64,000 bases of DNA from Candidatus Bipolaricaulota bacterium (GCA_030611415.1 JAUWPW010000001.1:18107-82106); one strand, 5' to 3'; shown: positions 4,819 through 62,516, numbered from the stretch's first letter. Translations and numbers: made by a program. Notes: a model not told the origin generated them from the letters alone.

Positions 4819-4902
4819 GCGAGGGTGGCGGAATTGGCAGACGCGCTAGCCTTAGGAGCTAGTGCCCTTCCGGGCATGCGGGTTCGAGTCCCGCCCTTCG
4901 CA
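4819..4902 (+). tRNA. tRNA-Leu (anticodon TAG)
   Basis: Class II cloverleaf with acceptor GCGAGGG/CCTTCGC, anticodon loop cTTAGGa, a long variable arm and T-arm GCGGGTTCGAGTCCCGC. No encoded CCA. Confidence 0.8.
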
Positions 4903-4944
4903 TTTGCGTGATGCACGATCGCCCGTTATACTGTGGATTGTACT

Positions 4945-5016
4945 GCGGGAATAGCTCAGCGGTAGAGCACTGCCTTGCCAAGGCAGGGGTCGCGGGTTCA
5001 AATCCCGTTTCCCGCT
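4945..5016 (+). tRNA. tRNA-Gly (anticodon GCC)
   Basis: GCGGGAATAGCTCAGCGGTAGAGC...anticodon loop tTGCCAa...GGTTCAAATCC. The acceptor stem pairs fully. Confidence 0.85.
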
Positions 5017-5042
5017 TGTTGCGAGATCTAGATGAACGTCGG

Positions 5043-5126
5043 GCCGGGGTGGCGGAATTGGCAGACGCAAGGGACTTAAAATCCCTTGAGGTTAACCTCG
5101 TGCGGGTTCAAGTCCCGCTCCCGGCA
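5043..5126 (+). tRNA. tRNA-Leu (anticodon TAA)
   Basis: Class II tRNA with the same D-arm as the first Leu tRNA (TGGCGGAATTGGCAGACGC), anticodon loop cTTAAAa and a long variable arm. Confidence 0.8.
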
Positions 5127-5134
5127 CAAGATAT

Positions 5135-5208
5135 CGCGGGGTGGAGCAATCAGGGAGCTCGTCGGGCTCATAACCCGGAGGTTGTCGGTTCGAATCCGAC
5201 CCCCGCAA
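5135..5208 (+). tRNA. Initiator tRNA-fMet (anticodon CAT)
   Basis: C1:A72 mismatch at the acceptor end and three consecutive G:C pairs closing the anticodon stem (GGG/CCC) around loop CTCATAA. These are hallmarks of the bacterial initiator. Confidence 0.8.
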
Positions 5209-5214
5209 CGAGAC

Positions 5215-5289
5215 GGCGGCGTAGCTCAACCGGTTGAGAGCGCTCGGCTCATATCCGAGAGGTTCGGGGTTCGAGTCCCTGCGCCGCTA
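5215..5289 (+). tRNA. tRNA-Met elongator type (CAT); tRNA-Ile2 (lysidine) cannot be excluded
   Basis: GGCGGCGTAGCTCAACCGGTTGAGAGC...anticodon stem CTCGG/CCGAG with loop cTCATAt, T-arm GGGGTTCGAGTCCCT. Acceptor pairs 1-7. Confidence 0.7.
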
Positions 5290-5303
5290 TTGATCGTAGC
5301 TAG

Positions 5304-5377
5304 GGGGGCGTAGCTCTAACCGGGAGAGCGCTGCGTTCGCATCGCAGAGGTTGGCGGTTCGAATCCGCTCGCCTCCA
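5304..5377 (+). tRNA. tRNA-Ala (anticodon CGC)
   Basis: G3:U70 Ala identity pair in acceptor GGGGGCG/CGCCTCC, anticodon loop tTCGCAt, T-arm GGCGGTTCGAATCCGCT. Confidence 0.8.
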
Positions 5378-19853: not shown

Positions 19854-21758
19854 ATGACTGTGTCCAAAACAATAACAGAGAAAATCCTTTCGCGGCACAT
19901 ACAGAAAGGGAGCTTAAGCAAAGGAACAGAAATCGGAATACGGATCGATCACTGTCTAACACAAGACTCTACTGGGACAATGGCATGGCTCGAGTTTGAG
20001 TCACTTGGCTTAGAACGCGTCAAGGCAGAGCTTGTTGTCTCCTATTCGGATCATACCTCACTAGGATTCAAAGGCGAATCAACCGATGACCATGCCTTTC
20101 TTAAAACAATAGCCTCGCACTACGGAGCCAAGTTCTCCAAGAACGGGAATGGCGTATGTCATCAGCTTCACTACGAACGTTTCGGCGCACCGGGCAAAAC
20201 ATTGCTCGGTTCTGATTCTCACACACCAACGGCTGGCGGACTGGGAATGCTTGGGATTGGTGCTGGTGGAATGGATGTAGCCGTAGCAGCAGGAGGAGGG
20301 CTTTTTCATCTCGTTGTCCCCAAGGTGATGCGAATAGTCCTCAAGGGCAAGCTTTCATGGGGAGTGGCAGCAAAAGACATTGCGCTAGAGATTCTACGGC
20401 GAATCTCGGTAAAGGGGGGAGTGGGTTACTTTATCGAGTTTGCTGGCCGCGGTATAAAGAACCTTTCAGTACCACAACGAGCAACAATTACTAACATGTG
20501 CACGGAAACCGGAGCAACTTCTTCAATCTTCCCCTCAGACAAGGTAACACGGGAATTCTTACGTATGCAAGGTCGCGAGGAAGACTGGGCCAAGCTTATT
20601 CCAGACGCCAATGCCAAATACGATAAGAGCTTAGAAATCGATCTTTCTTCATTGAAACCGCTTATAGCAATGCCAGGAATGCCAGACAATGTCTATGATA
20701 TTGAAGAAGTTCTAGGAACAAAGATCGATCAGGTCTTCATAGGTTCTTGTACCAATGGAGGTTATCACGACATCAAGATTGTCGCAGAGATGCTCAAGGA
20801 CAAGCATGTCTCTACAGACTTCGATGTGATTGTCTCTCCCGCGTCCAAGCAGGCATGGGAAATGTTGTTAGAGGATGGAAGTTTCTTCGATCTTACCAAA
20901 GCTGGAGTACGCATGATCGAACCTGGCTGTAATGCATGCATCGGAATTGGCTTTGTCCCCGGATATGAGCATTTGTCCCTGCGTACGGTAAATCGGAACT
21001 GGAAGGGGCGTGGGGGAAACAAGTTCGGGAAGATCGCGCTCTGTAGCCCTGAGGTAGCAGCTGCATCTGCACTTGCCGGACGAATAGCTGATCCACGCGA
21101 GCTTCCACCGGTGAAAATCAAGATCGATCGCCTCATCATAGATGACTACCTCATTATAAAACCATCTGGAGCGGGGAGTCCCATCAGACGCGCACCAAAC
21201 ATCGTTCAACTGGAGCCACAAGAACCACTTACTCCGCTTCTTGAAGGAGAAGTACTGCTCAAGCTAGGCGACGGTATCTCGACTGATGACATCCTCCCGG
21301 CAGGACCGCTCACACAGCACCTACGCAGCAACCTTCCCGAGATAGCTAAGTTTACCTTCTACTATGAGGACAAGAGCTTCGCGGAGCGCGCCCTGGAAAA
21401 GGGTGGTGGATTCATCGTTGGAGGCGACAACTACGGGCAGGGTTCATCGCGCGAGCACGCAGCCCTTACTCCATGGCAACTAGGAATCAAGGCGGTTTTC
21501 GCGGAGAGCTATGCTCGCATCCACCGCGCCAACCTGATTAACGTAGGGATCATCCCATTTACTTGCGATACAAATACCCTGGATCAGGGAGATCGACTGG
21601 AGGTAGACGTATCTGACCTCAACCGGGAATTGAGCGTTGACAACAAGACAAAAGGAAGCACCATTAAGATACGTCACGATCTTTCTCCGCGTGAAATCGA
21701 GATGATAGGAACCGGTGGCCTACTCGCCTATACTGCACAAAAACACAGTGAAAAGTAA
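19854..21758 (+). CDS. Aconitase-family hydratase, ~635 aa (Aquifex-type putative aconitate hydratase)
   Basis: Aconitase catalytic domains plus a C-terminal swivel domain (GDNYGQGSSREHAALTPWQLGIKAV). Its length matches the small bacterial/archaeal AcnA-like family. The start is ambiguous among GTG 19851, ATG 19854 and GTG 19860. Confidence 0.75.
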   Translation: MTVSKTITEKILSRHIQKGSLSKGTEIGIRIDHCLTQDSTGTMAWLEFESLGLERVKAELVVSYSDHTSLGFKGESTDDHAFLKTIASHYGAKFSKNGNGVCHQLHYERFGAPGKTLLGSDSHTPTAGGLGMLGIGAGGMDVAVAAGGGLFHLVVPKVMRIVLKGKLSWGVAAKDIALEILRRISVKGGVGYFIEFAGRGIKNLSVPQRATITNMCTETGATSSIFPSDKVTREFLRMQGREEDWAKLIPDANAKYDKSLEIDLSSLKPLIAMPGMPDNVYDIEEVLGTKIDQVFIGSCTNGGYHDIKIVAEMLKDKHVSTDFDVIVSPASKQAWEMLLEDGSFFDLTKAGVRMIEPGCNACIGIGFVPGYEHLSLRTVNRNWKGRGGNKFGKIALCSPEVAAASALAGRIADPRELPPVKIKIDRLIIDDYLIIKPSGAGSPIRRAPNIVQLEPQEPLTPLLEGEVLLKLGDGISTDDILPAGPLTQHLRSNLPEIAKFTFYYEDKSFAERALEKGGGFIVGGDNYGQGSSREHAALTPWQLGIKAVFAESYARIHRANLINVGIIPFTCDTNTLDQGDRLEVDVSDLNRELSVDNKTKGSTIKIRHDLSPREIEMIGTGGLLAYTAQKHSEK

Positions 21759-21762
21759 AGCG

Positions 21763-21960
21763 TGATGGGTAATGAGTGATGCGTAACAGAAAGCCAGTCC
21801 ATAGTCCAAGGTCCAGAGTCGAGAAACGGTGATGGGTAAAGAGTAACAAGTGAAAGGCCAGGAACTGAAAAACAATGACTGATGGCTGAGAGCTGACCGC
21901 TGATAGCTGTTTGCTGATAACTGTAATGAGTGATGGGCAAGGAGACGTAAATAGTAACCA
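21763..21960 (+). repeat. Dispersed repeat family 'A', copy 1 (core 21763-21820) plus degenerate tandem reiterations of the GTGATGGGTAA box
   Basis: GTGATGGGTAATGAGTGATGCGTAACAGAAAGCCAGTCCATAGTCCAAGGTCCAGAGTC starts 5 nt after the aconitase stop. Further GTGATGGGTAAAGAGTAACA, GAGCTGACCGCTGATAGCTG and GTAATGAGTGATGGGCAAGGAG modules follow. Confidence 0.8.
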
Positions 21961-35909: not shown

Positions 35910-36045
35910 GCTTAAGACCTCCTAAAGTCTTTAAGAACTATTCGTCAGTATCAGAAAGTGAAAGAATCCCCTTTCTATTTGGCAACAAAATTATACAGGC
36001 CCCCTCAGACCGTGCAAGTCATATCCGGTTAGTATTTTCCTCTGT

Positions 36046-36873
36046 TTACAAACGCCTAACAACAGCAAGCAAAAGTTGACGCACCTGTTCTCCTACTCGA
36101 CAAGTTGTCTCCATCACTTCTTCGTGAGAAAGACAGGCCCCTGAATCTACTCCTGCAGCAAGATTGGTTGCACAGGAGAGACCCAGCACCTCTATGCCCG
36201 CGTGGCAAGCGACAATCACCTCAGGAACGGTGGACATCCCCACAAGGTCCGCTCCCAGTGCGCGAAAGGCCCGGATCTCTGCTGGAGTCTCATAGGAAGG
36301 CCCAAGTGTTGCCAGATACACCCCTTCTTTGAGTTCAATTCCTTCTGCTCTTGCCGCTTCTCTTGCCAATACACACAGGCGAGGACTATACGCAGCAGAC
36401 ATATCAGGAAAACGAGGACCAAGTTGCTCACAGTTCTTGCCACGTAATGGATTCCTCCCCAACATGTTAATATGGTCAGTAATCAGTACTAAGTCTCCTG
36501 CGGCAAACTCGGTGTTAACGGCACCCGAGGCATTGGTGACAACAAGTGTCTTTATTCCCATAAGCGCAAACAAACGAGTGGCAAAGACAACCTTATCCAG
36601 AGGATAACCTTCATAATGGTGCGCACGGCCCCGCTGAACGAGAACAACCTTCCCCTCAATTTCCCCTACCCATAAATCGCCAGCATGCCCAGTTACAGTC
36701 GAAAGAGGAAATCCAGGAATCTCACTACATGGGATATGTACTCCTCGCCCAGGTATGCCAAATGCCTTAGAAAGACCTGAGCCAAGTACAATGGCAATTG
36801 TTGGAAGCGCCGGAAGCTTGTTCCGCAGTACAGAAACAGCTCTGTTCAGCTCAGCTAGTTGAGTATCATTCAT
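36046..36873 (-). CDS. Purine nucleoside phosphorylase (PNP/MTAP family, trimeric type)
   Basis: PNP-I family motifs (IVLGSGLS, GHAGDLWVGE, VVTNASGAVN), 275 aa. Confidence 0.75.
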   Translation of the reverse strand: MNDTQLAELNRAVSVLRNKLPALPTIAIVLGSGLSKAFGIPGRGVHIPCSEIPGFPLSTVTGHAGDLWVGEIEGKVVLVQRGRAHHYEGYPLDKVVFATRLFALMGIKTLVVTNASGAVNTEFAAGDLVLITDHINMLGRNPLRGKNCEQLGPRFPDMSAAYSPRLCVLAREAARAEGIELKEGVYLATLGPSYETPAEIRAFRALGADLVGMSTVPEVIVACHAGIEVLGLSCATNLAAGVDSGACLSHEEVMETTCRVGEQVRQLLLAVVRRL

Positions 36874-36906
36874 CGCAACACCTCCTTCCCGAAACCTTGT
36901 TGCAAT

Positions 36907-37980
36907 CTAGCAACATTCAGAAGAACCTTTGAGAACTTGAGAGTGGTCACCAAGTAGAAACCGGCTAGAAGAATCGCCCATGACTCTCAATTCTGCATAC
37001 CTCCCAATCAGAGAACGGTCTATACTTTTCGCGTCTGTTATTACGGCTTTTTCCAAAATGATGCTGTTCTCTATCTTGCTATTCTTAATGATGACACCAT
37101 CACCAATTGAAACATAAGGACCTATAACAGAACCTTCGATCACCACATTTTCCCCCATTATCACTGGACCAATTAGCTTCGAATCCCTTACTCGGGCGTT
37201 CTCATTCTGTGCTATCTTTCCCTTGACCTGTAAGCTAATCCCGCTCTTCATACGGGTTTCCGGAATCATTGCATCCAACAGAAGCTGGTTTGCATCAATC
37301 ATATCCATAGGAGTTCCTACATCCTTCCACCACCCGGTAACCCTATGAGGAACAACACGGTAACCGTCATCAATTAACTGCTGGATGGCATCTGTAATCT
37401 CGAGCTCCCCGCGCTTTGATGGACTAATCTTCTCAATAGCAGCGAAAATATGATAATCAAACACATACGTACCGATGACTGCCAGGTTGGTCGAGGGATC
37501 ATCAGGTTTTTCCACAACCTTCTTAATCTCACCGTTCTTAAGCCACGCTACTCCAAAACTGCGTGGATTATCGACCTCGACAAGGGAAATAACCGCATGG
37601 CTGTCCCCTTGACGGAACTGCTTTACTAACCCTCTTACCCCATTTTCCAAGAGATTATCCCCCAAGTAGAGTAAGAACGACTCGGAACCAACGAATCCTT
37701 GAGCACATTGAACAGCATGAGCCAGCCCTTTTGGTTTCTGCTGCACGATGTAACTCAGGTCAAGGTCATAGCGCGATCCATCCCGCAGATAGCTTTTGAA
37801 ACTGGCCTTAGTGCCTGGGCTCACCACGATACCAATCTCGCGAATGCCGCCATCTTTGATCGCTTGAAGTATGAGGTCTATCACCGGCTTGTTAGCAATT
37901 GGAATCAGGTGCTTTGCCTTAGAGTAGGTTAACGGACGCATTCTGGTTCCCTCGCCAGCACAGAGGATTACTGCCCGCAT
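36907..37980 (-). CDS. Sugar-1-phosphate nucleotidyltransferase, long form with C-terminal left-handed beta-helix (G1P thymidylyl/uridylyl-transferase-like)
   Basis: MRAVILCAGEGTRMRPLTYSKAKHLIPIANKPVI is the NTP-transferase signature. C-terminal hexapeptide repeats. It overlaps the manC end by 13 nt. Confidence 0.75.
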   Translation of the reverse strand: MRAVILCAGEGTRMRPLTYSKAKHLIPIANKPVIDLILQAIKDGGIREIGIVVSPGTKASFKSYLRDGSRYDLDLSYIVQQKPKGLAHAVQCAQGFVGSESFLLYLGDNLLENGVRGLVKQFRQGDSHAVISLVEVDNPRSFGVAWLKNGEIKKVVEKPDDPSTNLAVIGTYVFDYHIFAAIEKISPSKRGELEITDAIQQLIDDGYRVVPHRVTGWWKDVGTPMDMIDANQLLLDAMIPETRMKSGISLQVKGKIAQNENARVRDSKLIGPVIMGENVVIEGSVIGPYVSIGDGVIIKNSKIENSIILEKAVITDAKSIDRSLIGRYAELRVMGDSSSRFLLGDHSQVLKGSSECC

Positions 37981-39038
37981 CGATCTTCCTTTTTCTGCAT
38001 CTGCACAATCCTTCTTACTTCCTGAGAGCGGCTCTTGTCCATTACCAGCAGTGCCTTACCCGTGTCCACAATAACGAGATTAGAAACTCCTAGCGTGGCA
38101 ATCAATTTCCCTTCTTCAGACACAATAATACTATCCTGTGTATCGATTCCAAGGTGAGAAGCCCGAATACTATTTCCGCATTCATCCCTGCTCAGGACTC
38201 TTTCCAAGGCTGCCCAATCCCCCACATCGCTCCAACCTATGTTTCCCGTAGGAATCATCTGCACCCGCTTGCTTTTTTCCATTACTCCGTAATCAATAGA
38301 CATGGCTCTCTGCTCACGGTAAACCTGGTTGAGCACAGCTTGTTCATCAACTGTTCCAAGATGTCCCCTTATCACCTGTAATCCTTTATACAGCTTGGGC
38401 ATATGGAGCTTGATCTCATGCAGGATCATATCAACCCTCCAAACAAACATCCCACTGTTCCAGAAGTAATCGCCCTGGTGAAGAAAACGAGTAGCTGTTT
38501 CTTGATCAGGCTTTTCAGTGAATTCCTCTACTTTCATTACACAATTCGAAGCAGATGGCTTTTTCACAGCCTTGATATACCCATAACCAGTTTCAGGATG
38601 ATCCGGCGCGATGCCCAAGGTAATCAGGCAATCCCTTGTACTAGCAACTCCGATCGCCTGTCTGAGACATTCCAGGAAACGTACATTGTTGGTTATCACG
38701 TGATCCGCCGGAAGAACGACCATCGTCCCTTTGGGATCAAGGCGGGAAAGCCACAGCGCAGCAACTCCAACGCAAGGAGCAGTCCCCCGTGCCATAGGCT
38801 CAACGATAATATTCTTCGCGGGCAAGGAAGGAAGCTGTTGCAAGACCAGTGGTGCATACTGCTCTGCAACAACAACAATGGTATTCTTAATTGGAATAAG
38901 AGGAGCGATGCGCTCAACCGTTTCCTGCAGCATAGTCCTCTCTCCAAGGAGGTTCAAGAACTGCTTCGGGCGCTTCCGTGTACTTAATGGCCACAGTCGC
39001 TCGCCTTGACCACCCGCCATGATTACTGCAAAGTTCAT
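37968..39038 (-). CDS. manC: Mannose-1-phosphate guanylyltransferase (no cupin isomerase domain)
   Basis: MNFAVIMAGGQGERLWPLSTRKRPKQFL N-terminus, 356 aa. Confidence 0.75.
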   Translation of the reverse strand: MNFAVIMAGGQGERLWPLSTRKRPKQFLNLLGERTMLQETVERIAPLIPIKNTIVVVAEQYAPLVLQQLPSLPAKNIIVEPMARGTAPCVGVAALWLSRLDPKGTMVVLPADHVITNNVRFLECLRQAIGVASTRDCLITLGIAPDHPETGYGYIKAVKKPSASNCVMKVEEFTEKPDQETATRFLHQGDYFWNSGMFVWRVDMILHEIKLHMPKLYKGLQVIRGHLGTVDEQAVLNQVYREQRAMSIDYGVMEKSKRVQMIPTGNIGWSDVGDWAALERVLSRDECGNSIRASHLGIDTQDSIIVSEEGKLIATLGVSNLVIVDTGKALLVMDKSRSQEVRRIVQMQKKEDRCGQ

Positions 39039-39070
39039 GCTTGTCCTCCTGTCAGCTCTTATAAGGATTT

Positions 39071-39115
39071 GGGGTTCATTGGGTTCGTAGGGTTTGTTGG
39101 GTTCGTAGGGTTCAT
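39071..39115 (-). repeat. Array of five 9-bp tandem repeats (minus-strand reading ATGAACCCT-ACGAACCCA-ACAAACCCT-ACGAACCCA-ATGAACCCC)
   Basis: Read directly. It lies between the four-helix-bundle gene stop and the manC start. It is the reverse complement of the arrays at 39504 and 41490. Confidence 0.85.
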
Positions 39116-39119
39116 GAAG

Positions 39120-39488
39120 CTAACCACTCCCTTTTAGGTAACTCATAAAACGAGATAGCTGCCTGGCTACTACCTCTAACCTTTCATAAGTACTATCAAA
39201 AGCTTCCTGTGATATGTAGTCTTGGTCAAGAGCAGTATAAAGCTGCGTCTGAACCTCGGCTACCGAGCCTTTGGAGATAAATAGGAATTGGATAAACTCT
39301 TTGTTCGAGTGTCTCGAAAAGCCTTCAGCTATATTGCTGGGTATTGAGACCACCGCTCGGCGGATCTGATCACATAGGGCATAGTCTCTGGAGAAGGTCC
39401 CAACCGAAGAAGCTTGATAAACGGCATTTACTACGTCTCGTGCTTTCTGCCACACCTCTAGATCTTCAAATCTCTCAACAGTTGCCAT
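39120..39488 (-). CDS. Four-helix-bundle protein (TIGR02436 / 23S rRNA intervening-sequence protein / Avd-like family)
   Basis: MATVERFEDLEVWQKARDVVNAVYQ...AVVSIPSNIAEGFSRHSNKEFIQFLFISKGSVAEVQTQL is the diagnostic family signature. A GAGGAAGGG RBS sits upstream. Confidence 0.8.
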   Translation of the reverse strand: MATVERFEDLEVWQKARDVVNAVYQASSVGTFSRDYALCDQIRRAVVSIPSNIAEGFSRHSNKEFIQFLFISKGSVAEVQTQLYTALDQDYISQEAFDSTYERLEVVARQLSRFMSYLKGSG

Positions 39489-39503
39489 TCCCTTCCTCTA
39501 ACT

Positions 39504-39584
39504 CAATGAACCCCATGAACTCTATGAACTCTATGAACTCAATGAACTCAATGAACTCCACGAACTCCACGAACCCAACAAACT
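39504..39584 (+). repeat. Array of nine 9-bp tandem repeats (AATGAACCC CATGAACTC TATGAACTC x2 AATGAACTC x2 CACGAACTC CACGAACCC AACAAACTT)
   Basis: Read directly. It occupies the whole interval between the pgm stop and the start of the four-helix-bundle gene, which is that gene's promoter region. Confidence 0.85.
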
Positions 39585-39594
39585 TTCTTCCTTT

Positions 39595-40965
39595 TCATTT
39601 GGAACGCTCAAACAGCTTGCTCACTTCGGCCAGCTTTTCCTCCATCAACTCTTCTGTCTTAGCCTCCAGATTCAATCGTAGCAAGGGCTCAGTGTTAGAA
39701 GCTCGTAGGTTGAACCACCAATCTTCATAATCAACGGAAATGCCATCGAGATAAGTTATCCTGCCGTTTGCAAACTGTTTTTTCACCTTATCCATGACCA
39801 GCCGCTGATCAACAACAGGAAAGTTTATCTCTCCTGATTGAGCATACTTGCGCAATGGCTGAACCAGGGCTTTCAAGGTTTTTCCTGCATCTGCCACAAT
39901 TTGCAGTAGTTCCAACATTGCGAAGATGCCACTCTCACAACAAAAGAAATCTGAGAAGTAAAAGTGGCAAGAGAGCTCTCCGGCAAACAAGCCTCCCTGA
40001 TCACGCATGATTTGCTTTATAAAGGAGTGTCCTACTCGTGTTCTTACTGGACATCCACCTTGAGCCCGTATAATTTCGGGAACAACACGACTTGAGCGCA
40101 GGTCATAAAGGATGGTGCCTGAACGTTTTTCCCGCAAAACACGCTCAGCAATCAGCCCAGTAAGTAGATCTCCGGGAATCAACTTGCCAGTTTCATCAAT
40201 AAAACCAACACGATCGCCATCGCCATCAAACGCAATCCCGATCGAACCAGGGAGATTTGCCATGACCTTTTTTACATCTTGTAGATTCTCCTCTTTGAGT
40301 GGATTTGCCTCATGGTGCGGAAAATTACCATCAAGATCGAAGAAGAGATTCTCATGGAGGATATTCTGCCCTTTGAGCACCTCTGGCAAGATCGCTCCAG
40401 CCATTCCATTCCCAGCATCAATAACTACAGGAGTGTCCATCCTTACTGAGAACCGCCGGCCAAAGAAATCACAATAACGCTGCTTCAAATTCTCACAACG
40501 AATTGAACCAATCTCTGCAGCCTTGTTCATCGAACCATCTTCCGCAAGGTGGCAGATCTTGCCCAGCCCCGTAGCAGTACTGATCGGGATGGCTTGGTCA
40601 CGTACCAACTTGAACCCGTTATACCCTGCTGGATTATGTGAAGCAGTAATCATAGCCCCGCCAGCGGCACGGAGAACGTTCACAGCAAAATAGAGCATTG
40701 GAGTGGTACAAAGGCCGATATCAATAACGCTAACCCCTGCAGTATTCAATCCTTTCGCCAGTGCAGCGAACAGCGGGGCTGAACTATTACGCATATCTCT
40801 ACCCACGACAACCGGTCTTCCAGATCGAAGGTACCCGCTTCTGGCAAAAGCCCAACCTATACGGAAGGCAGCATCTTCGTCAAGTTGGGAAGGATATAGG
40901 CCACGGATATCGTATGCCGTGAAGATTGTAGAATCTATCAAGCTCTTAGGGTTCGTGAAATTCAT
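39595..40965 (-). CDS. Phosphoglucomutase/phosphomannomutase
   Basis: Active-site serine loop TASHNPAGYNGFK, a Mg-binding DGDGDR motif, 456 aa. Confidence 0.85.
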   Translation of the reverse strand: MNFTNPKSLIDSTIFTAYDIRGLYPSQLDEDAAFRIGWAFARSGYLRSGRPVVVGRDMRNSSAPLFAALAKGLNTAGVSVIDIGLCTTPMLYFAVNVLRAAGGAMITASHNPAGYNGFKLVRDQAIPISTATGLGKICHLAEDGSMNKAAEIGSIRCENLKQRYCDFFGRRFSVRMDTPVVIDAGNGMAGAILPEVLKGQNILHENLFFDLDGNFPHHEANPLKEENLQDVKKVMANLPGSIGIAFDGDGDRVGFIDETGKLIPGDLLTGLIAERVLREKRSGTILYDLRSSRVVPEIIRAQGGCPVRTRVGHSFIKQIMRDQGGLFAGELSCHFYFSDFFCCESGIFAMLELLQIVADAGKTLKALVQPLRKYAQSGEINFPVVDQRLVMDKVKKQFANGRITYLDGISVDYEDWWFNLRASNTEPLLRLNLEAKTEELMEEKLAEVSKLFERSK

Positions 40966-41086
40966 TGGATTGGTAGGGTTACCTCCTGATTTGTGATCGA
41001 TAGCTCGCTAAGGAAAGATACTTGGCACCTTTGTTTTCACCCTGTTTCCTGTTTTCCTCCGCGACCTCTGTGTCCTCTGCGGTTAA

Positions 41087-41168
41087 GTGTCTTTGGCAGA
41101 TTGGACAGAAGACGGATAATCTCCAGGGCAAATTCCTTTGTCCGCTTTTCTAGATCTTGTCTATTCAT
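41087..41168 (-). pseudogene. Truncated remnant (N-terminal ~27 codons) of a second four-helix-bundle family gene
   Basis: MNRQDLEKRTKEFALEIIRLLSNLPKT matches the alternative N-terminal signature of TIGR02436 proteins. The reading frame then runs into unrelated Arg/Gly-rich sequence and a stop. No continuation appears in other frames. Confidence 0.5.
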
Positions 41169-41180
41169 TGTTGATGCACC

Positions 41181-41210
41181 AATTCGCAATACGCAATCCG
41201 CATTCCGCAA
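41181..41210 (-). repeat. Four tandem heptamers (minus strand ATTGCGG-AATGCGG-ATTGCGT-ATTGCGA) 13 nt upstream of the remnant start
   Basis: Read directly as TTCGCAAT ACGCAAT CCGCATT CCGCAAT on the plus strand. Confidence 0.6.
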
Positions 41211-41242
41211 TTGCCTCTGCTGTCCCTGTTTTCTCTCTGGAT

Positions 41243-41319
41243 GCCGGATCAAGTCCGGCATGACGAAATACATCGTCATTCCGGCGAACCCTGGATCGGG
41301 GTCCAGGGCAGGCGCCGGA
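41243..41319. other. Cluster of three adjacent perfect hairpins (possible structured RNA or attenuator/terminator element)
   Basis: Hairpins are GCCGGA-tcaag-TCCGGC, ATGACG-aaatacat-CGTCAT, and TCCGGCG-aa-[CCCTGGA-tcgggg-TCCAGGG]-cag-CGCCGGA (a nested stem-loop). Confidence 0.4.
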
Positions 41320-41362
41320 ATCCAGCGTAGTAGTAGCTCTACGTTAGTCATTACTGTCTTTC

Positions 41363-41431
41363 GACCTTGGACTTTGGACATTGGACTGGTTCTATCTTAC
41401 TCATCACTCATTGCAGCTATCAGCGGTCAGC
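41363..41431 (-). repeat. Dispersed repeat family 'A', copy 4, minus orientation
   Basis: The reverse complement reads GCTGACCGCTGATAGCTGCAATGAGTGATGAGTAAGATAGAACCAGTCCAATGTCCAAAGTCCAAGGTC. It shares the GCTGACCGCTGATAGCTG module with the extension of copy 1. Confidence 0.75.
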
Positions 41432-41439
41432 TTTCAGCT

Positions 41440-41630
41440 CGTGATTCCTTACTCAACCAATCGACCAATCTCGTACTCAACTGCTTCACCCAACGAACTC
41501 AATGAACCCTACGAACCCTTGTTCCCATTCAACCAGTCAACCAATCAACTATTCAACTCGCCTTTTCTCGGCTCCCGACTATGTTTTCAACTCAACGAAC
41601 TCAACGGACTCAACGGACTCAACAGACTCA
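41440..41630 (+). repeat. Degenerate 9-bp periodic region containing AACGAACTC-AATGAACCC-TACGAACCC (41490-41516) and CAACGAACT-CAACGGACT-CAACGGACT-CAACAGACT (41593-41628)
   Basis: The 17-mer ATGAACCCTACGAACCC at 41498-41514 matches the reverse complement of 39099-39115. It lies between the pfkA stop and the family-A repeat. Confidence 0.75.
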
Positions 41631-41663
41631 TTACCTATCACGCGTTACTCATCGCCCACTACT

Positions 41664-42665
41664 TTAATTAGCTAGCTTATACACAAGGCGGTAGATCTCA
41701 AGATTGACGTTTCGCCCGTCCTTACTTAGCTCTGTAAACGGAATTGTCTGCACTCCCTGATCAACAAGCGCAGTCATTACTCCAGCAGTTCCATCGGCAA
41801 GCAAATCAACAGCGGCTTCACTCAAACGACAGGCAAGGATGCGGTCAAACGCAGAGGGCGAGCCTCCTCGCTGTAAGTGACCAAGGATAGTCAAGCGTGT
41901 CTCTATTGTACCTGTGTCGTTTAGGTATCTACTGACCAAGACGCCAGCCGATCCTTCTTCTTTCTTCTTACCTTGAGGCTCTCTATGGGGGGTAAATCCT
42001 TCAGAGACAACTATAATAGAGTGATGTTTCCCTTTAGCTACTCCTTGCTCTACCAATGCTGTGACGTCTTCCAGTGATAGGGAAACCTCAGGGATAAGAA
42101 CAATCTCCGCACCACCGGCAAGCCCACCCATCAGGGCGATGTATCCGGAATTCCGCCCCATGACTTCAACGACAAAGGCACGCTCGTGAGAGACAGCGGT
42201 ATCACGAATACGGTTGAGTGATGCCACCACCGTGTTTAGTACTGTGTCCACCCCGATCGCCATCGCTGTCCCGTAGATATCATTATCAATCGATGCAGGA
42301 ATCCCTACTGTAGGAATACCCTGTTCCTGCAGCCAACGCGCTCCTTGAAGGGAGCCATTTCCACCAATAACAATTACTCCATCAATTCTCCAGTTACTAA
42401 TGGTATCAAGCGCATGTTCCTGCCCCTTCTTTGTGAGGAAGGCAGCCGAGCGAGCAGTATGCAAGAATGTTCCGCCGCGCTCAATCACTCCACCAACCGC
42501 TCGATTGTCAAGTGATAACAGATCTCCTTCGATCAGGCCAGCAAATCCTCGACTTACTCCGAACATCTCCAGTCCAAGCGAACAACCACAGCGGACAGCA
42601 GCACGAATTGCCGCATTCATCCCAGGACTATCGCCACCGCTTGTCAACACCGCAATACGCGACAC
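41664..42665 (-). CDS. pfkA: ATP-dependent 6-phosphofructokinase
   Basis: MSRIAVLTSGGDSPGMNAAIRAAVR and the GGDGS and MGR motifs, 333 aa. Confidence 0.88.
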   Translation of the reverse strand: MSRIAVLTSGGDSPGMNAAIRAAVRCGCSLGLEMFGVSRGFAGLIEGDLLSLDNRAVGGVIERGGTFLHTARSAAFLTKKGQEHALDTISNWRIDGVIVIGGNGSLQGARWLQEQGIPTVGIPASIDNDIYGTAMAIGVDTVLNTVVASLNRIRDTAVSHERAFVVEVMGRNSGYIALMGGLAGGAEIVLIPEVSLSLEDVTALVEQGVAKGKHHSIIVVSEGFTPHREPQGKKKEEGSAGVLVSRYLNDTGTIETRLTILGHLQRGGSPSAFDRILACRLSEAAVDLLADGTAGVMTALVDQGVQTIPFTELSKDGRNVNLEIYRLVYKLAN

Positions 42666-42783
42666 GGTAAATGAACCTCCTTATTCTCTTACAGTGTAAC
42701 TCATCGACGCTTGGTGGGGAAGGATTACACACTTTCCTTCCTAAGACAGGAAGAGTAGAATTAATACAAGAGAGGTGAGGTAG

Positions 42784-43950
42784 TTGATTAAACGATCAAT
42801 TATGAAAAAAGCATTGGTGGTATTGGGACCAATCATCATTCTGGTCATTACCCTTGGTGTCAATGGAAATCAGACAATAGATAGCGGGTTTTTCTCTCCC
42901 TTATTCGAGGTCTACCAGTACATTCAGGACTATTTCTACAACCCAGAGCAAATCAACGATCAAGAAGCCCTGTACGGCGCAATGAGGGGAATGGTCGAAC
43001 AGCTTGATGATCCGTACAGCGAATTCCTCAACCCTGAGGATTACCAGCATTGGGAACAAAGCCTAGAAGGAAAATTCAGCGGAGTAGGAATCGAGATCAC
43101 AATCAAGGATGAAACACTTACCGTTATAACACCACTTGTTGGAACACCTGCCGAGCAGGCTGGAGTGTGTGCAGGGGACCAGATCCTGGAGATTGACGGT
43201 GAGCCTACTGAAGGTATTACCCTCAGCACCGCAGCCAGGAAAATCCGTGGAGAGGCAGGTACAAGCGTTTCTCTTCTCATACAACACAAAGATGGTACAC
43301 AGGAAGAAATTGAGATCGTGCGAAAGATAATCGTAGTCAAGTCAGTGACAAGTGAACTTGTGGGAGAAGGAAGGATTGCTTACATCCGCATCTCGCGCTT
43401 TGACAGTGATGCCACTATTAATCTTGACACCGCCCTTAGCGAATTCAATCTGGAGAACTTAGATGGGATGATACTCGATCTGCGAAACAACCCTGGTGGA
43501 TTGCTAAAAGAAGCAATTTCTGTCTCCAAGCGATTTGTAGATCAAAACGTAATAATAGTCTCCACAAGAGGAAGGGTTGCTGGAAAGGAGCAATTCTGGT
43601 CAACGGGAAATCTGATCCCTAACCTTCCGCTCGCGGTACTGATCAACGGTGGAACTGCGAGTGCAGCTGAAATAACCGCGGCAGCTATTCGCGACCATGA
43701 GATGGGCATTCTGATCGGGGAGTGTTCCTTTGGCAAAGGGTTAATCCAGCGCGTATTCAAATTGCCAGACGGTTCAGCCCTTAAACTCACCACCGGAGAG
43801 TATTTCACCCCATTAGGGCAGGCAGTCAATAAAGTAGGACTGTCTCCAGACATCAGCATAGATCAAGGAGAAGATCCAATCGAGGCCGCGATCACCTGGA
43901 TCAATTCACATGTCGGGGCGCGAATGCCAATTGCCCTCGGCAAGAGCTAA
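42784..43950 (+). CDS. ctpA: Carboxyl-terminal processing protease (S41 family) with PDZ domain
   Basis: N-terminal signal/TM, a PDZ domain (GIEITIKDETLTVITPLVGTPAEQAGVCAGDQILEIDG) and catalytic Ser/Lys motifs (INGGTASAAEI and CSFGKG). Confidence 0.8.
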   Translation: MIKRSIMKKALVVLGPIIILVITLGVNGNQTIDSGFFSPLFEVYQYIQDYFYNPEQINDQEALYGAMRGMVEQLDDPYSEFLNPEDYQHWEQSLEGKFSGVGIEITIKDETLTVITPLVGTPAEQAGVCAGDQILEIDGEPTEGITLSTAARKIRGEAGTSVSLLIQHKDGTQEEIEIVRKIIVVKSVTSELVGEGRIAYIRISRFDSDATINLDTALSEFNLENLDGMILDLRNNPGGLLKEAISVSKRFVDQNVIIVSTRGRVAGKEQFWSTGNLIPNLPLAVLINGGTASAAEITAAAIRDHEMGILIGECSFGKGLIQRVFKLPDGSALKLTTGEYFTPLGQAVNKVGLSPDISIDQGEDPIEAAITWINSHVGARMPIALGKS

Positions 43951-43952
43951 GT

Positions 43953-44951
43953 ATGAAAACTTCTGTAATAGGCGCGGGAGGATGGGGAACAGCATTTGCC
44001 CGGCTTCTCGCTACAAGCAGGCATACGGTAACCTTATGGGTCCGCAATCCGATTCAAGCCAAAGAAATTGACAGGTTGCGAGAAAACAGAAAATACCTCC
44101 CTGGGGTCCTTCTTCCGAAGCAAGGCCTCAATATTACCACTTCTCTTTCCGAGGCATCCACAGCTAAGCTAATCATACTTGCTGTCCCTTCATTTGCCAT
44201 GGGCGATCTGTTGGACAAACTTGTCCCACTTGTAGAAGAGCAAAAAGTATTCATCAATCTAGCTAAGGGAATCGACCACGCAACGGAAAAACCCATGTCC
44301 GAGCTGATAAGAAGCAAGATCGACGCAGAGGCTGTATTTACCCTCTCTGGCCCAAGCCATGCCGAAGAGGTAGGCCGCGATATGCCCACAGCAGTTGTCC
44401 TCGCTGGAGCCAATCTTAGCCTAGGAGAAGAAATCCAACATTTCCTTTCTAGTTCCCGCTTCCGCGTTTACTTGACGGATGACATTCGCGGGGTGGAACT
44501 TTGTGCAACAGTAAAGAACATAATCGCTCTAGCTGGTGGTGTCTCCGATGGCCTCGGCTACGGAGACAATAGCCGCGGGGCACTCATCTCGCGTGGCCTA
44601 GCAGAAATGGTTCGGTTCGGCCGGGTGTTTGGAGCCAGACAAGAGACCTTCTTCGGCCTATCTGGCTTGGGAGATCTAGTTGCTACATGTACGAGCAAGC
44701 ATAGCCGTAACCGATTCGTTGGCCAACAACTGGGGATGGGAATCCCTCTCGACGAAATCCTTGCAAAGATGGACAAGGTTGTAGAAGGCGTGTACGCCAC
44801 CGAAATCGTCCATTCCATGGCTAGATCAAGAGGGATAGAGATGCCAATTACTGACGGGGTATGGCGGCTGCTCCGCAAGGAGGTATCCCCATCAGCCTTG
44901 GTAGACGAGATCATGACTAGACCCCCAAAACGAGAGGGAATCAGACAGTGA
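43953..44951 (+). CDS. gpsA: NAD(P)H-dependent glycerol-3-phosphate dehydrogenase
   Basis: MKTSVIGAGGWGTAFA Rossmann motif and a GpsA C-terminal domain, 332 aa. Confidence 0.85.
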   Translation: MKTSVIGAGGWGTAFARLLATSRHTVTLWVRNPIQAKEIDRLRENRKYLPGVLLPKQGLNITTSLSEASTAKLIILAVPSFAMGDLLDKLVPLVEEQKVFINLAKGIDHATEKPMSELIRSKIDAEAVFTLSGPSHAEEVGRDMPTAVVLAGANLSLGEEIQHFLSSSRFRVYLTDDIRGVELCATVKNIIALAGGVSDGLGYGDNSRGALISRGLAEMVRFGRVFGARQETFFGLSGLGDLVATCTSKHSRNRFVGQQLGMGIPLDEILAKMDKVVEGVYATEIVHSMARSRGIEMPITDGVWRLLRKEVSPSALVDEIMTRPPKREGIRQ

Positions 44952-46183
44952 ATAGTTATGATGTAGCGGTAATAGGTGGCGGACCCATTGGGGCAGTAGC
45001 TGCACGCTATGCGGCTGCGACAGGAGCGCGTACCCTACTCGTTGATCAAGGTGACGGCTCTTGTGAGCCGGCTTGTTGTGCCGGGTTAGTGAGCCCACGG
45101 ACGCCTTCTTTGCTCGGGATTTCATCAACAGGTCTCCTAAGAGAAATCCATGGGGCAATTATCCATTCTCCAACAGGGAAACAGACTGAGATCCTCTCCA
45201 AAAAAGTGAAGGCAATCGTTCTCGACCGCAGCGCGCTCAATCGTGAACTAGTCAAGCTTGCTGCACAAGCAGGTGTAGAGGTAAGGCATCACACCCGTGC
45301 TGCTATCACTGACCAAGCAAAGCTCCAACTCAGTGAGCAGAACAGACAGTATGAAGCCAAGGCTCGTGTAGTGATCGGGGCAGACGGCCCACGAAGCATG
45401 GTCGCTAGTCGCTTCTCCCTACCATCGCCACCAAGGTTCCTTGCAGCAGTACAGGCAACTATTGTACGAGAGGCGCGTGCCTCAGACATGGTAGAGATCT
45501 TCTTTGGAACGAAGATTGCTCCTGGATTCTTCGCCTGGGCGGTTCCAGCAAAGCAGGAACAGCTACGCGTAGGTCTTGCAGCTACTCAAGGCACCGACGT
45601 AAACACTCTGCTTAACAACCTCCTTAGTCAACACTTCCCCGGACAGGTGATTTCATATGTCGGCGGAATAATCCCCGTCGGAACTGCTGCCAAAACAACT
45701 ACCGACGGCGCTCTTATCGTAGGTGATGCCGCAGGTCAAGTAAAACCAACCTCAGGGGGTGGAATCTATACAGGAGGGTTATGTGCCAAAATAGCAGGAG
45801 AAATCGCAGGTTATGCCTCATTGGCAGAAAAGACTACAAACGAAACCCTCAAGGAATACGAGCACCGTTGGCAAGACAAGATTGGGAAGGAACTACGCTT
45901 TGGTCTTCTTGCCCATCGTGCCTTCTGTGGTCTCTCAGATGCTGAGATCGAAGCCGCACTGGCCATCATCAACCAACCTTCAATCCTACAGGCAATCACT
46001 GAATATGGAGATATTGATTATCCAAGTATGCTAGTAAGTTCGCTCCTCTCTCGCCAAGATCTGTGGCCAAGGCTCCTCTCCTTGATTCCTGCGCTCGGTG
46101 GATGGGAAAAGTTCGGAAACCTTGCCCAACTTGTTATCTCCTTAGAGCAACCAGGCCGGGGTCGTGAGCCAAAAAAACAGTGA
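44948..46183 (+). CDS. FAD-dependent geranylgeranyl reductase family oxidoreductase
   Basis: YDVAVIGGGPIGAVAARYAA is a GxGxxG FAD fold, and a GDAAG motif (LIVGDAAGQVKPTSGGGI) is typical of the ChlP/BchP/GGR family. A GTG start overlaps the gpsA stop (GTGA). Confidence 0.65.
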   Translation: MNSYDVAVIGGGPIGAVAARYAAATGARTLLVDQGDGSCEPACCAGLVSPRTPSLLGISSTGLLREIHGAIIHSPTGKQTEILSKKVKAIVLDRSALNRELVKLAAQAGVEVRHHTRAAITDQAKLQLSEQNRQYEAKARVVIGADGPRSMVASRFSLPSPPRFLAAVQATIVREARASDMVEIFFGTKIAPGFFAWAVPAKQEQLRVGLAATQGTDVNTLLNNLLSQHFPGQVISYVGGIIPVGTAAKTTTDGALIVGDAAGQVKPTSGGGIYTGGLCAKIAGEIAGYASLAEKTTNETLKEYEHRWQDKIGKELRFGLLAHRAFCGLSDAEIEAALAIINQPSILQAITEYGDIDYPSMLVSSLLSRQDLWPRLLSLIPALGGWEKFGNLAQLVISLEQPGRGREPKKQ

Positions 46184-46249
46184 TGAGTAATGGGTGATGC
46201 GTAAGATAGAAGCAGCCCAAAGTCCAACGTCCAAGGTCAGAGGTCAGAG
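46180..46249 (+). repeat. Dispersed repeat family 'A', copy 2
   Basis: GTGATGAGTAATGGGTGATGCGTAAGATAGAAGCAGCCCAAAGTCCAACGTCCAAGGTCAGAGGTCAGAG. The stop codon of the preceding gene (TGA 46181-46183) lies inside the first GTGATG box. Confidence 0.8.
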
Positions 46250-46310
46250 AAAAGAGGAGCCTGGATTAGTCACCCATAACGATTAGGGGCCTATGATATA
46301 ATGTGGAGAT

Positions 46311-61232: not shown

Positions 61233-62516
61233 TCACGTTTTCTGGCCCGAGATCACGCGTATCAGGGCATCTGCAACCGCTGGATCAAGTTCAACCCCTC
61301 GCATCTGCTTAACAATCTCAATTGCCTGTTGACGAGAGAAAGCCTTACGATAAGGCCTATCAGTGGAAAGGGCATTGTAGATATCAGCAGCAGCAATTAT
61401 CCGTGCCACAAAAGGAATAGCTTCTCCTCTTAATCCGTCGGGATACCCCTTTCCATTCCACCGTTCATGTTCATGTCGAACGGCATTTGCTACCGGTGCG
61501 TAGATTTCCAAGCCTTCAATCAATTCCGCGCTAACGGCTGGATGAAGCTTCATTATCTTCCATTCCTCTTCCGTTAACGGACCCGGTTTAAGTAAAATCG
61601 AGTCAGGAACAGCAATCTTTCCGATATCATGTACCCTGGCAGCAATATCGGTTCTTTCGATATCTCGCTGTGAAAGACCCATCTCTTGAGCAATTCTAGT
61701 CGCAAGCTCAGCCACCTCAGTTGAATGTATCGCAGTATAATGATCCCGCTCATCAAGCAGCCGAGAAATCTGCTCAAATGTCTTCCGTGTCTCGGTTTGA
61801 AGCCTTAGATAGCTACCAAAAGAAACATGAACCAGAACAACGGGAATTAGCCCCAACAGAACATGCCAGATCGAAATTGAATAAAGAACCGTAAGTAGCA
61901 AAGCCAGGCTACACAGCGTGAAGTATTGAACAAAGAACTCATGAAGGTTCGTCCACATAGGGTAGAGAAATTTCTTCTTCTCAATTATGCAAACAATGCC
62001 TATGACAGAAGAAGTGTTTAGGAGCAGATAGAAAAGAGACCCTGCGATCGCCCAAAGGTACTCAGACGGTTCCCCAAGCAAAAGGACCTGGTGGTTCGAA
62101 AAGCGGAGCGTTAAGCCGGCCACTGTCATTGCAACCGTTAATTGACTGGTATTGAACAATGTAGCAGCAATAAACTTGCCGTACCCTTGCCTGAGCTGAT
62201 CCCATCTTAAGAACACCTCTGAGAGAAGCGAGGAAACAAATACCAACAAGACGCCAAGTGAAGGGCCAAGCATGAATAGGGCGGCAAGACATATTGCCAT
62301 AGAGCCAGAGATCTCCCACTTATAGGGCGGGATCCACGTGGCGTAGATTTCTGACAATATGGCAAGGATGACAAAAACGCTAGCTATCGCCAGTTGATCG
62401 GCGGTAGGAGGAGAAACCGTATAAACGGCATAGACCAACGAGGCGAAGCAGAAAACGACCAGCAAACCAATAAACACCTTGGCTCGAAATGGTAGCTTCA
62501 TCTCTTCTCCTGGCAA
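61233..62516 (-). CDS. Membrane-anchored HD-GYP domain protein (putative c-di-GMP phosphodiesterase)
   Basis: N-terminal ~7 TM segments. C-terminal HD domain with HDIGK...HHERWNGKGYP (HD and GYP motifs). Confidence 0.8.
   Translation of the reverse strand: MPGEEMKLPFRAKVFIGLLVVFCFASLVYAVYTVSPPTADQLAIASVFVILAILSEIYATWIPPYKWEISGSMAICLAALFMLGPSLGVLLVFVSSLLSEVFLRWDQLRQGYGKFIAATLFNTSQLTVAMTVAGLTLRFSNHQVLLLGEPSEYLWAIAGSLFYLLLNTSSVIGIVCIIEKKKFLYPMWTNLHEFFVQYFTLCSLALLLTVLYSISIWHVLLGLIPVVLVHVSFGSYLRLQTETRKTFEQISRLLDERDHYTAIHSTEVAELATRIAQEMGLSQRDIERTDIAARVHDIGKIAVPDSILLKPGPLTEEEWKIMKLHPAVSAELIEGLEIYAPVANAVRHEHERWNGKGYPDGLRGEAIPFVARIIAAADIYNALSTDRPYRKAFSRQQAIEIVKQMRGVELDPAVADALIRVISGQKT

Follow-up and report, generated by a model that had tools for sequence, protein, structure and literature searches.

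Four-helix-bundle (4HB) proteins of the PF05635/TIGR02436 family are very numerous, two single-protein searches each returning thousands of homologues, and roles have been assigned to them only in diversity-generating retroelements (DGRs) and in the intervening sequences (IVSs) of 23S rRNA. In DGRs, the family is represented by Avd, a nucleic-acid-binding pentamer; to our knowledge, flanking tandem arrays are not a feature of these retroelements. In the rRNA IVS, as established experimentally for Coxiella, the S23p open reading frame (ORF) occupies a loop, the complementary borders of the element form a stem, and RNase III cuts within that stem; the Coxiella IVS is 428 nt long with a 28-bp stem, and Salmonella, Leptospira, and Alphaproteobacteria are further cases in which RNase III is reported to cleave within the terminal-repeat stem (PMC4990558). 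Questions as to where IVSs come from, whether they move, and what they do go back to about 1990 (PMC4990558). Here we describe a stand-alone 4HB gene that is flanked by short tandem-repeat arrays and lies between pgm and manC, within positions 39,039 to 41,663 of a 64,000-nucleotide stretch of DNA (the window) from a Candidatus Bipolaricaulota bacterium (GCA_030611415.1, JAUWPW010000001.1:18107-82106).

In terms of overall anatomy, the element that carries this gene, cassette 1 (39071–39584, intact, ~515 nt), is built like an IVS but lies in an mRNA operon. Read on the gene strand, the design of such a cassette is a G-rich tandem array of 7–9-nt units, a ribosome-binding site, an ORF for a 4HB protein of ~120 residues, and a C-rich array that is the reverse complement of the first. 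The 122-residue protein, which the initial annotation had already recognized, matches PF05635 (E 8.8e-37; 126 bits, cutoff 33.8) and TIGR02436 (E 6.3e-34; 116.5 bits, cutoff 24), and PDB entry 2GSC matches it at E 7e-18. The 3′ arm begins 4 nt past the 4HB stop codon and ends 32 nt ahead of the manC start. Tandem Repeats Finder confirms the 9-mer arrays, calling them at 39072–39113 (4.7 copies) and at 39500–39584 (~9 copies), and the core AYGAACYC is found 24 times where 7.9 would be expected, a count that none of 100 shuffles attains, with 16 of the 24 matches falling within 39072–41602 and 15 of those in arrays. The units run head to tail with no spacers between them, which distinguishes the arrays from a CRISPR. 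The tightest inverted pair joins 39074–39122 with 39499–39547 (49 nt, 76% complementary), and in the minimum-free-energy fold of 39040–39600, computed for both strands, an array–array stem closes around the 4HB ORF (z of −2.7 for the sense and −4.4 for the antisense strand; none of 100 shuffles gives as good a fold). As had been noted at the outset, rRNA and reverse transcriptase are absent here: the only Rfam matches in the window are six tRNAs, a search of 36000–44000 at E up to 1 retrieved no known RNA family, and no ORF of the window resembles a reverse transcriptase in a crude motif scan.

The same arm architecture is present in genuine IVSs. One plasmid match, in Azospirillum lipoferum 4B (L175), corresponds to no annotated gene and lies inside a 23S rRNA gene (Rfam, 2130 bits). 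The arms of this IVS are the tandem heptamers CAGAGGA CGGATGA CAGAGGA CGGAGGA, paired with TCCGTCC TCTGTCT TCTGTCA TCCGTCT, and in the predicted fold they close the element (z −9.8). From a search with the Azospirillum ORF, contigs for four homologues were taken, giving five loci, of which L184 and L186 encode the same protein and are near-identical, so that five independent 4HB ORFs are placed by Rfam inside large-subunit rRNA (L175, L184 (≈L186), L187, L188, and L189). In all five, the ORF is co-oriented with the rRNA, the arms are heptamer arrays, and the G-rich arm is 5′; one example pairs CAGAAGT CAGTAGT CAGAAGT CGGAAGT with TTCTGAC x3. Cassette 1 thus resembles an IVS in holding a protein of the same family in its loop, in the co-orientation of the ORF with the host transcript, in the complementary arms that enclose the ORF, in the construction of those arms from short tandem repeats with the G-rich arm 5′, and in size (~515 nt, compared with 428 nt in Coxiella; PMC4990558). 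It differs in its host, which is a protein-coding operon (pgm/manC) rather than rRNA, in its use of 9-mers rather than heptamers, and in its unbroken stem of 10 bp as opposed to 29–32 bp. Sporadic presence is a further likeness at the level of the cassette class, Anabaena being filled and Dolichospermum empty (see below), whereas the site in the window is represented by filled relatives only. The comparison suggests that IVS-type elements settle in ordinary operons too.

A second cassette (40944–41630), in the pfkA–pgm spacer, has kept its arrays and 27 codons of a putative 4HB gene, the remainder being filled by other repeats. Its C-rich 9-mer array at 40944–40980 was absent from the initial annotation, and the annotated start codon of pgm (40965) falls within it (ATG AAT TTC ACG AAC CCT AAG, encoding MNFTNPK); the tightest inverted pair joins 40948–40979 with 41488–41519. 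Neither Pfam nor NCBIfam, searched to E 10, detects the 27-codon segment, and tblastn with the collected 4HB set misses it too. When the peptide was compared by tblastn with 7.3 Gb of plasmids, four matches were obtained in all, each individually weak (E 0.08–2); each of the four lies in a gene whose annotation is "four helix bundle protein", and the two that were inspected begin at protein residues 1–3. On the strength of these matches, and with the profile searches silent, we accept the truncated second copy of the initial annotation as a probable remnant derived from another 4HB subtype. No further copy besides the intact gene was found in the window by tblastn with the 4HB protein or with a hidden Markov model built from the 4HB genes of L006–L085; a weak N-terminal-like match at 61778–61831, which lies within coding sequence and lacks arrays, was taken as chance.

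The initial annotation had drawn pgm as the center of a single unit, bracketed by the two 4HB copies and by inverted arrays. This arrangement is not borne out, as the strongest inverted pairs bracket each 4HB unit separately. The 17-mer cited in its favor is indeed an exact inverted match, but it pairs 39099–39115 with 41502–41518 and not with 41498–41514, a displacement of 4 nt. The accompanying idea of a once-mobile cassette that had inserted twice comes near the evidence; its unit was misdrawn, since the locus holds two separate array–4HB–inverted-array cassettes of different 4HB subtypes. On balance, we judge it rather likely that two IVS-type 4HB cassettes, one of them decayed, occupy consecutive intercistronic spacers of pfkA–pgm–manC, and that their arms form an RNase III-type stem.

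By this account, the cassette would have no promoter of its own and would be transcribed within the host polycistronic RNA, in which the two arrays would pair as a long imperfect stem with the ORF looped out. RNase III, by analogy with rRNA IVSs, would cut the array stem, freeing a stem-capped 4HB mRNA and parting the pgm and manC messages. Arms built from tandem repeats could slip and still pair in several registers, a property that would account for differences in copy number between strains. The 4HB protein may bind nucleic acid as its DGR relative Avd does and may aid the spread of the cassette. More speculatively, the polarity of the arms, G-rich 5′ and C-rich 3′, might mean that no long, unstructured C-rich tract stands exposed while its partner is still to be synthesized.

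The association of 4HB genes with paired arrays extends across the family. The survey set comprises 75 4HB genes in 80 metagenome loci that were picked by protein similarity alone (45–83% identity) and span many environments and GC contents; 576 genes from 80 manC loci without a 4HB gene served as controls, in place of a gap-based control in which decayed cassettes and wrongly delimited ORFs had interfered. In 60% of the 75 4HB genes, the flank-to-flank inverted-repeat score is above the control 99th percentile (Mann–Whitney p 1e-17), and the tandem-repeat score is elevated on the upstream flank (p 5e-31) as well as on the downstream one (p 3e-23). Unit periods are 7 (26 arrays), 8 (18), and 9 (22), and array length ranges from 2 to about 40 units, commonly about 4–9. 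The unit itself varies by locus (GTTTCGT, GGTTGGAA, GTTTGAG, AGTCCGA, GGTTAAAAG, GATTCAA, and others), with the downstream array being the reverse complement of the upstream one. A G-rich 5′ flank together with a C-rich 3′ flank is found in 44 cassettes and the reverse in 3, a pattern that is strand-symmetric. The upstream neighbor is co-oriented with the 4HB gene in 54 of 57 cases, and the contexts are mainly operon interiors: gmd/fcl (in three lineages), rmlA, wecB, DegT, fliE/fliF, fliP, and sufC. Cassette 1 is an ordinary member of what seems to be an extensive class of non-ribosomal IVS-type cassettes that has so far gone undescribed. "Empty hairpins", in which a G-rich array is followed by its C-rich inverse, were seen upstream of the 4HB gene in L043, L033, and L035 (3880–3994); a second C-rich array lies downstream of the gene in these loci, so that two alternative pairings are available. 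The idea that (GGGTTCRTN)n forms a G-quadruplex was dropped, as the units of most other cassettes have no G-runs.

The layout recurs in complete plasmids from organisms in culture or enrichment and is therefore not an artefact of assembly. The arrays and neighbors are TTTTAGA x3 / TCTAAAA x3 with DUF1156 and a HEPN gene in Gloeocapsa PCC 7428; GAAGGAT-type and inverted ATTCAT-type heptamers with a helicase and an N6-methylase in Candidatus Chlorohelix; GGGAAAA / CCCTTTT with hypothetical genes in Nostoc ATCC 53789; GGTTTAAG / AACCTTAA 3′ of an iron-sulfur cluster accessory gene in Riemerella anatipestifer; GGGAAAAG-type / CCCTTTT-type with AAA ATPase and ParB-family genes in Geminocystis NIES-3709; CAGGTGA-type / CTGTCAC with cas6 and cas4 (type I-D) in Anabaena sp. 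90; and, with the same cas genes (type I-D) in Pseudanabaena galeata, AGCTAAA x15 / AGCCAAA x10 as direct arrays, their TTTAGCT-type partner lying further upstream. Only weak or same-orientation arrays are present in Calothrix PCC 7716 and in plasmid gamma of Nostoc PCC 7120. Cassettes with a 4HB gene of the remnant subtype were noted in defence-type operons, as helicase/4HB/N6-methylase in the Chlorohelix plasmid (L172) and as DUF1156/4HB/Swt1-HEPN in the Gloeocapsa PCC 7428 plasmid (L173).

The 4HB gene and its arrays are gained or lost as one unit. In Anabaena sp. 90, ~40 heptamers, a 4HB gene, and four inverted heptamers lie between cas6 and cas4, whereas Dolichospermum UHCC 0315A, whose cas6 and cas4–cas1 flanks are 98.7% identical, has no 4HB gene and no arrays. 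At the junctions of this one filled/empty pair, no target-site duplication was found, and Dolichospermum has an unrelated 245-nt spacer in place of the cassette. In addition, arms of the type GRGTTYRTN / NAYGAACYC accompany 4HB genes 67–100% identical to that of the window in four contexts on Bipolaricaulota-like contigs, namely pgm/manC, gmd/fcl, transferase/DegT, and PIN/UPF0175. It is this near-isogenic pair, together with the same-unit genes in four contexts, that indicates that gene and arrays travel together. A single contig (L167; GCA_030612485.1, JAUWNS010000001.1, 1–16675) holds five 4HB genes in 16.7 kb, each with different units. These genes are interleaved with toxin–antitoxin-like genes of the HepT/MNT, PIN, DUF433, and UPF0175 types and with polysaccharide-cluster genes (gmd, epimerase, ABC-transporter, and DegT), and flanking arrays are present at the 4HB genes only.

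Several further observations concern the cas6–cas4 site of type I-D systems, where 4HB cassettes are found in Anabaena sp. 90 pANA02 (L179) and Pseudanabaena galeata pPg_01 (L181). In L179, around position 1608, the start and first residues of cas4 are derived from the array, and the N-terminus of the cassette-less Dolichospermum cas4 differs. The "empty" 36-nt cas6–cas4 spacer of Pseudanabaena sp. ABRG5-3 (L183, 877–912) retains AATTACG x4; either this array has persisted after loss of a cassette, or arrays exist first and attract cassettes. A large-scale screen recorded "23S rRNA IVP" as CRISPR-associated (PMC10910872), an association that is probably explained by cassettes in this position.

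A number of findings weigh against the account of an IVS-type cassette with an RNA stem. Some 30–40% of the 4HB genes have no significant inverted flanks; in certain cases, arrays of the same orientation stand on both sides, for example C-rich twice with the G-rich partner further upstream, some 4HB genes have a hairpin of G-rich and C-rich arrays entirely upstream, and some spacers without a 4HB gene also hold arrays. The stem of cassette 1 is imperfect, with a longest unbroken helix of 10 bp and recurrent A–C mismatches in the sense RNA, compared with unbroken helices of 17–23 bp in L001, L166, L169, and L007 and 29–32 bp in true IVSs. Across 79 cassettes, the duplex energies of sense and antisense strands are alike (Wilcoxon p 0.44), so the complementarity could act at the DNA level; G–U wobble thus gives no clue to the strand of the putative RNA stem. 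A signature of RNase III is also absent from the 64-kb window, an observation that says nothing about the genome as a whole.

The weak stem and the equal pairing of the two strands lend some weight to a DNA-level mobile cassette, in which the arrays would be terminal inverted repeats or substrates for recombination or hairpin processing by an enzyme acting in trans, with the RNA stem incidental. We regard this explanation, which is compatible with an IVS-type cassette, as possible but doubtful. It would fit the filled/empty polymorphism within near-identical flanks, the occurrence of the same gene with the same unit in four contexts, the five 4HB genes of L167, and the decayed copy beside the intact one in the window, as well as the lack of strand preference in pairing and the far less perfect stems of free-standing cassettes relative to those borne by rRNA. 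No transposase, integrase, or reverse transcriptase adjoins the cassettes in the window, however, the neighboring ORFs being enzymes of sugar metabolism and glycolysis, and at the Anabaena/Dolichospermum junctions an unrelated spacer is replaced with no duplication of the target. Moreover, the excess of cassettes with the G-rich arm 5′ (44 versus 3) is not predicted by a purely DNA-level terminal repeat, and the strong co-orientation of the 4HB gene with host genes and, in all five independent IVSs, with rRNA points to dependence on host transcription.

The units might instead be cognate binding sites, private to each cassette, at which the multimeric 4HB protein encoded between them binds RNA or DNA and so regulates or packages its own transcript. 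Consistent with this notion, paralogues on one contig use different units and close homologues in different contexts share them, the PDB depositions of two relatives, 2GSC and 2RLD, contain five chains apiece, Avd, the phage relative (phrog_3206), is a nucleic-acid-binding pentamer, and arrays commonly have about 4–9 units. We nevertheless consider it improbable. Among orthologous cassettes, the unit drifts (GAGTTCATT, GGGTTTGTT, GGGTTCGTA) while the proteins remain 87–94% identical, array length runs from 2 to about 40 units, and inverted symmetry is unnecessary for simple iteron binding.

Close relatives of the window allow the evolution of the arrays at pgm/manC to be followed. An identical 4HB protein is encoded in the same gene context on five other metagenome contigs (L001–L005), and the order pgm/4HB/manC, with arrays on both sides, recurs in orthologous cassettes whose proteins are 94% and 87% identical. 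Strain-to-strain variation in 9-mer copy number, which the initial annotation had proposed seeking, was found: the 5′ array has nine units in the window and six in L001, L004, and L005, three independent assemblies in which collapse of short-read assembly is possible, and ~five units in L166 and ~four in L169–L171. The arrays in fact break short-read assemblies, as L002 ends inside the 5′ array, L003 has an N-gap there, and L001 begins within the array at 41590–41630. The 3′ (manC-proximal) array is identical across L001–L005. Among the orthologous cassettes, array unit number and sequence differ next to coding DNA that has hardly changed, and the 4HB gene of the window has a dN/dS of 0.16–0.36 relative to its orthologues (87–94% amino acid identity). 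No empty pgm/manC site was found, all closer relatives being filled with 4HB proteins 87–100% identical; a GTDB scan with ManC gave a best match of 58% identity without synteny (L086), and a 4HB gene is absent from all 80 manC loci.

The variable copy number had led the initial annotation to propose a contingency locus, in which slippage in promoter-embedded arrays would tune the expression of 4HB, manC, and pgm. The variation itself stands, both between near-identical strains (9 versus 6) and between related species, and we consider the proposal very unlikely. The arrays had been placed in the promoter regions of the 4HB gene and manC; a scan of the pfkA–pgm and pgm–manC spacers for sigma-70 consensus promoters and for terminators finds no minus-strand promoter-like or terminator-like site and no excess relative to shuffles, and the genes are co-directional. 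A 9-nt unit, as a multiple of 3, preserves the frame, also where the array overlaps the pgm start, and the manC-proximal array does not vary in L001–L005. Contingency would also leave unexplained the inverted pairing across phyla, the association with 4HB genes, and the likeness to rRNA IVS stems. That the arrays are chance low-complexity spacers beside a vertically inherited 4HB gene is scarcely credible: the pgm/manC cassette is indeed inherited vertically among the relatives just described, but the enrichment over the 576 controls, the isolates and rRNA IVSs, and the filled/empty pair contradict it.

The cassette is also reminiscent of other known systems. In terms of sequence, the window 4HB protein is distantly homologous to Avd (phrog_3206, E 2e-4) and belongs to the same four-helix-bundle fold family, but it scores 12.4 bits against NF033474, for which the cutoff is 80, and neither a reverse transcriptase nor an evident template/variable repeat pair lies near its gene. 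The short tandemly repeated repetitive (STRR) heptamers of heterocystous cyanobacteria are dispersed intergenic repeats of unknown role, and we know of no description of them as inverted pairs around one gene family. They share with the cassettes an intergenic location and tandem heptamers, and 4HB cassettes of Nostoc, Anabaena, Calothrix, and Pseudanabaena are flanked by heptamer arrays; the window, by contrast, is not cyanobacterial and uses 9-mers. Integron cassettes and miniature inverted-repeat transposable elements (MITEs) resemble the 4HB cassettes as regards small, co-oriented, promoterless ORFs between host genes, inverted ends, presence/absence polymorphism, and several copies per locus. 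They differ in that no integrase, attC-like site, transposase, or target-site duplication was seen around the 4HB cassettes, whose ends are tandem arrays private to each. The contingency loci of pathogens likewise have short tandem repeats whose copy number differs between strains, but here the unit keeps the frame, the arrays are inverted pairs tied to one gene family, and no overlap with a promoter was shown. In the full-text literature that could be searched, which includes few subscription journals, no account came to light of arms made of tandem repeats, whether beside stand-alone 4HB genes or in the stems of IVSs.

The features of the locus are collected in Table 1. The minus strand carries every gene from pfkA through the glucose-1-phosphate (G1P) nucleotidyltransferase gene as a co-directional string; the manC product matches TIGR01479 at E 6e-96, under the curated cutoff, and PADLOC defence-system models have zero matches. 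The six tRNA genes of the window form a cluster at 4819–5377 on the plus strand.

Table 1. Features of the two cassettes, their host genes, and associated repeats (window coordinates)
Feature	Position	Strand	Basis or context
G1P nucleotidyltransferase gene	36907-37980	minus	
manC	37968-39038	minus	NTP_transferase and ManC_GMP_beta-helix; directly downstream of cassette 1, co-oriented
Cassette 1 3′ arm, five 9-mers NAYGAACCC (gene strand)	39071-39115	minus	Tandem Repeats Finder, pattern search
Intact 122-aa 4HB / 23S-rRNA-IVS-protein gene	39120-39488	minus	
Shine-Dalgarno-like AGAGGAAGGG	39490-39499	minus	Immediately 5′ of 4HB ATG; sequence reading
Cassette 1 5′ arm, ~nine 9-mers GRGTTCRTN (gene strand)	39500-39584	minus	pgm-4HB spacer; Tandem Repeats Finder
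pgm/pmm	39595-40965	minus	Four PGM_PMM Pfam domains; between the two cassettes
Cassette 2 3′ arm, four degenerate 9-mers AACCCTACC AATCCAATG AATTTCACG AACCCTAAG	40944-40980	minus	Repeat search
27-aa putative N-terminal remnant of different-subtype 4HB gene (MNRQDLEKRTKEFALEIIRLLSNLPKT)	41088-41168	minus	
CGCAATN heptamer array inside cassette 2	41180-41211	minus	Tandem Repeats Finder
Double hairpin resembling repetitive extragenic palindromes (REP-like; gccggatcaagtccggc ... ccggcgaaccctggatcggggtccagggcaggcgccgg) inside cassette 2	41237-41330		Sequence reading
Dispersed heptamer-built element, copy in cassette 2	41340-41440	minus	
Dispersed heptamer-built element, further window copies	21750-21850, 46180-46250	plus	
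Cassette 2 5′-side G/T-rich 8-mers (gene strand)	41453-41470, 41525-41557	minus	Tandem Repeats Finder
Cassette 2 5′-side G/T-rich 9-mers (gene strand)	41488-41518 (3.4 copies), 41590-41630 (4.6 copies)	minus	Tandem Repeats Finder
pfkA	41664-42665	minus	PF00365, E 7e-101; upstream of cassette 2, co-oriented

Two of the repeats that fill cassette 2 recur elsewhere. Elements of the form gtcattcccg...cgggaatcc, which resemble the REP-like hairpin of the window, adjoin arrays in L074. The dispersed element is intergenic, 70–100 nt long, and composed of heptamers (GTGATGA GTAATGG ... CAGTCCA AAGTCCA AGGTCCA); in the window it lies just 3′ of stop codons in the same orientation as the preceding gene, and in contig L167 (1646–1676, 4286–4316, and 8658–8688) it has the opposite orientation. 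A terminator-like or MITE-like module is one possibility.

For the biology of the family, if stand-alone 4HB genes share the stem design of IVSs, two puzzles become one, and one that is testable, as cassettes in ordinary operons occur in cultured hosts (Anabaena sp. 90, Nostoc, Riemerella, and Gloeocapsa PCC 7428). The arrays also bear on their host genes in supplying start codons to downstream genes, pgm in the window and cas4 in Anabaena sp. 90. A bolder proposal, which we hold to be unlikely, is that the 4HB IVSs and the stand-alone 4HB genes constitute one widespread class of promoterless, transcript-embedded selfish cassettes whose arms would have two tasks: insulating the host RNA by way of an RNase III-type stem, and acting as a private recognition code to which the multimeric 4HB protein of the cassette binds for its spread or processing. 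If that were true, the cassettes would settle in any well-transcribed RNA, whether in rRNA helices or in operons for polysaccharide, CRISPR-Cas, restriction/BREX-like, flagellar, or Suf functions; PF05635 would gain its first general function, and the cassettes would provide a natural set of protein/short-repeat recognition pairs.

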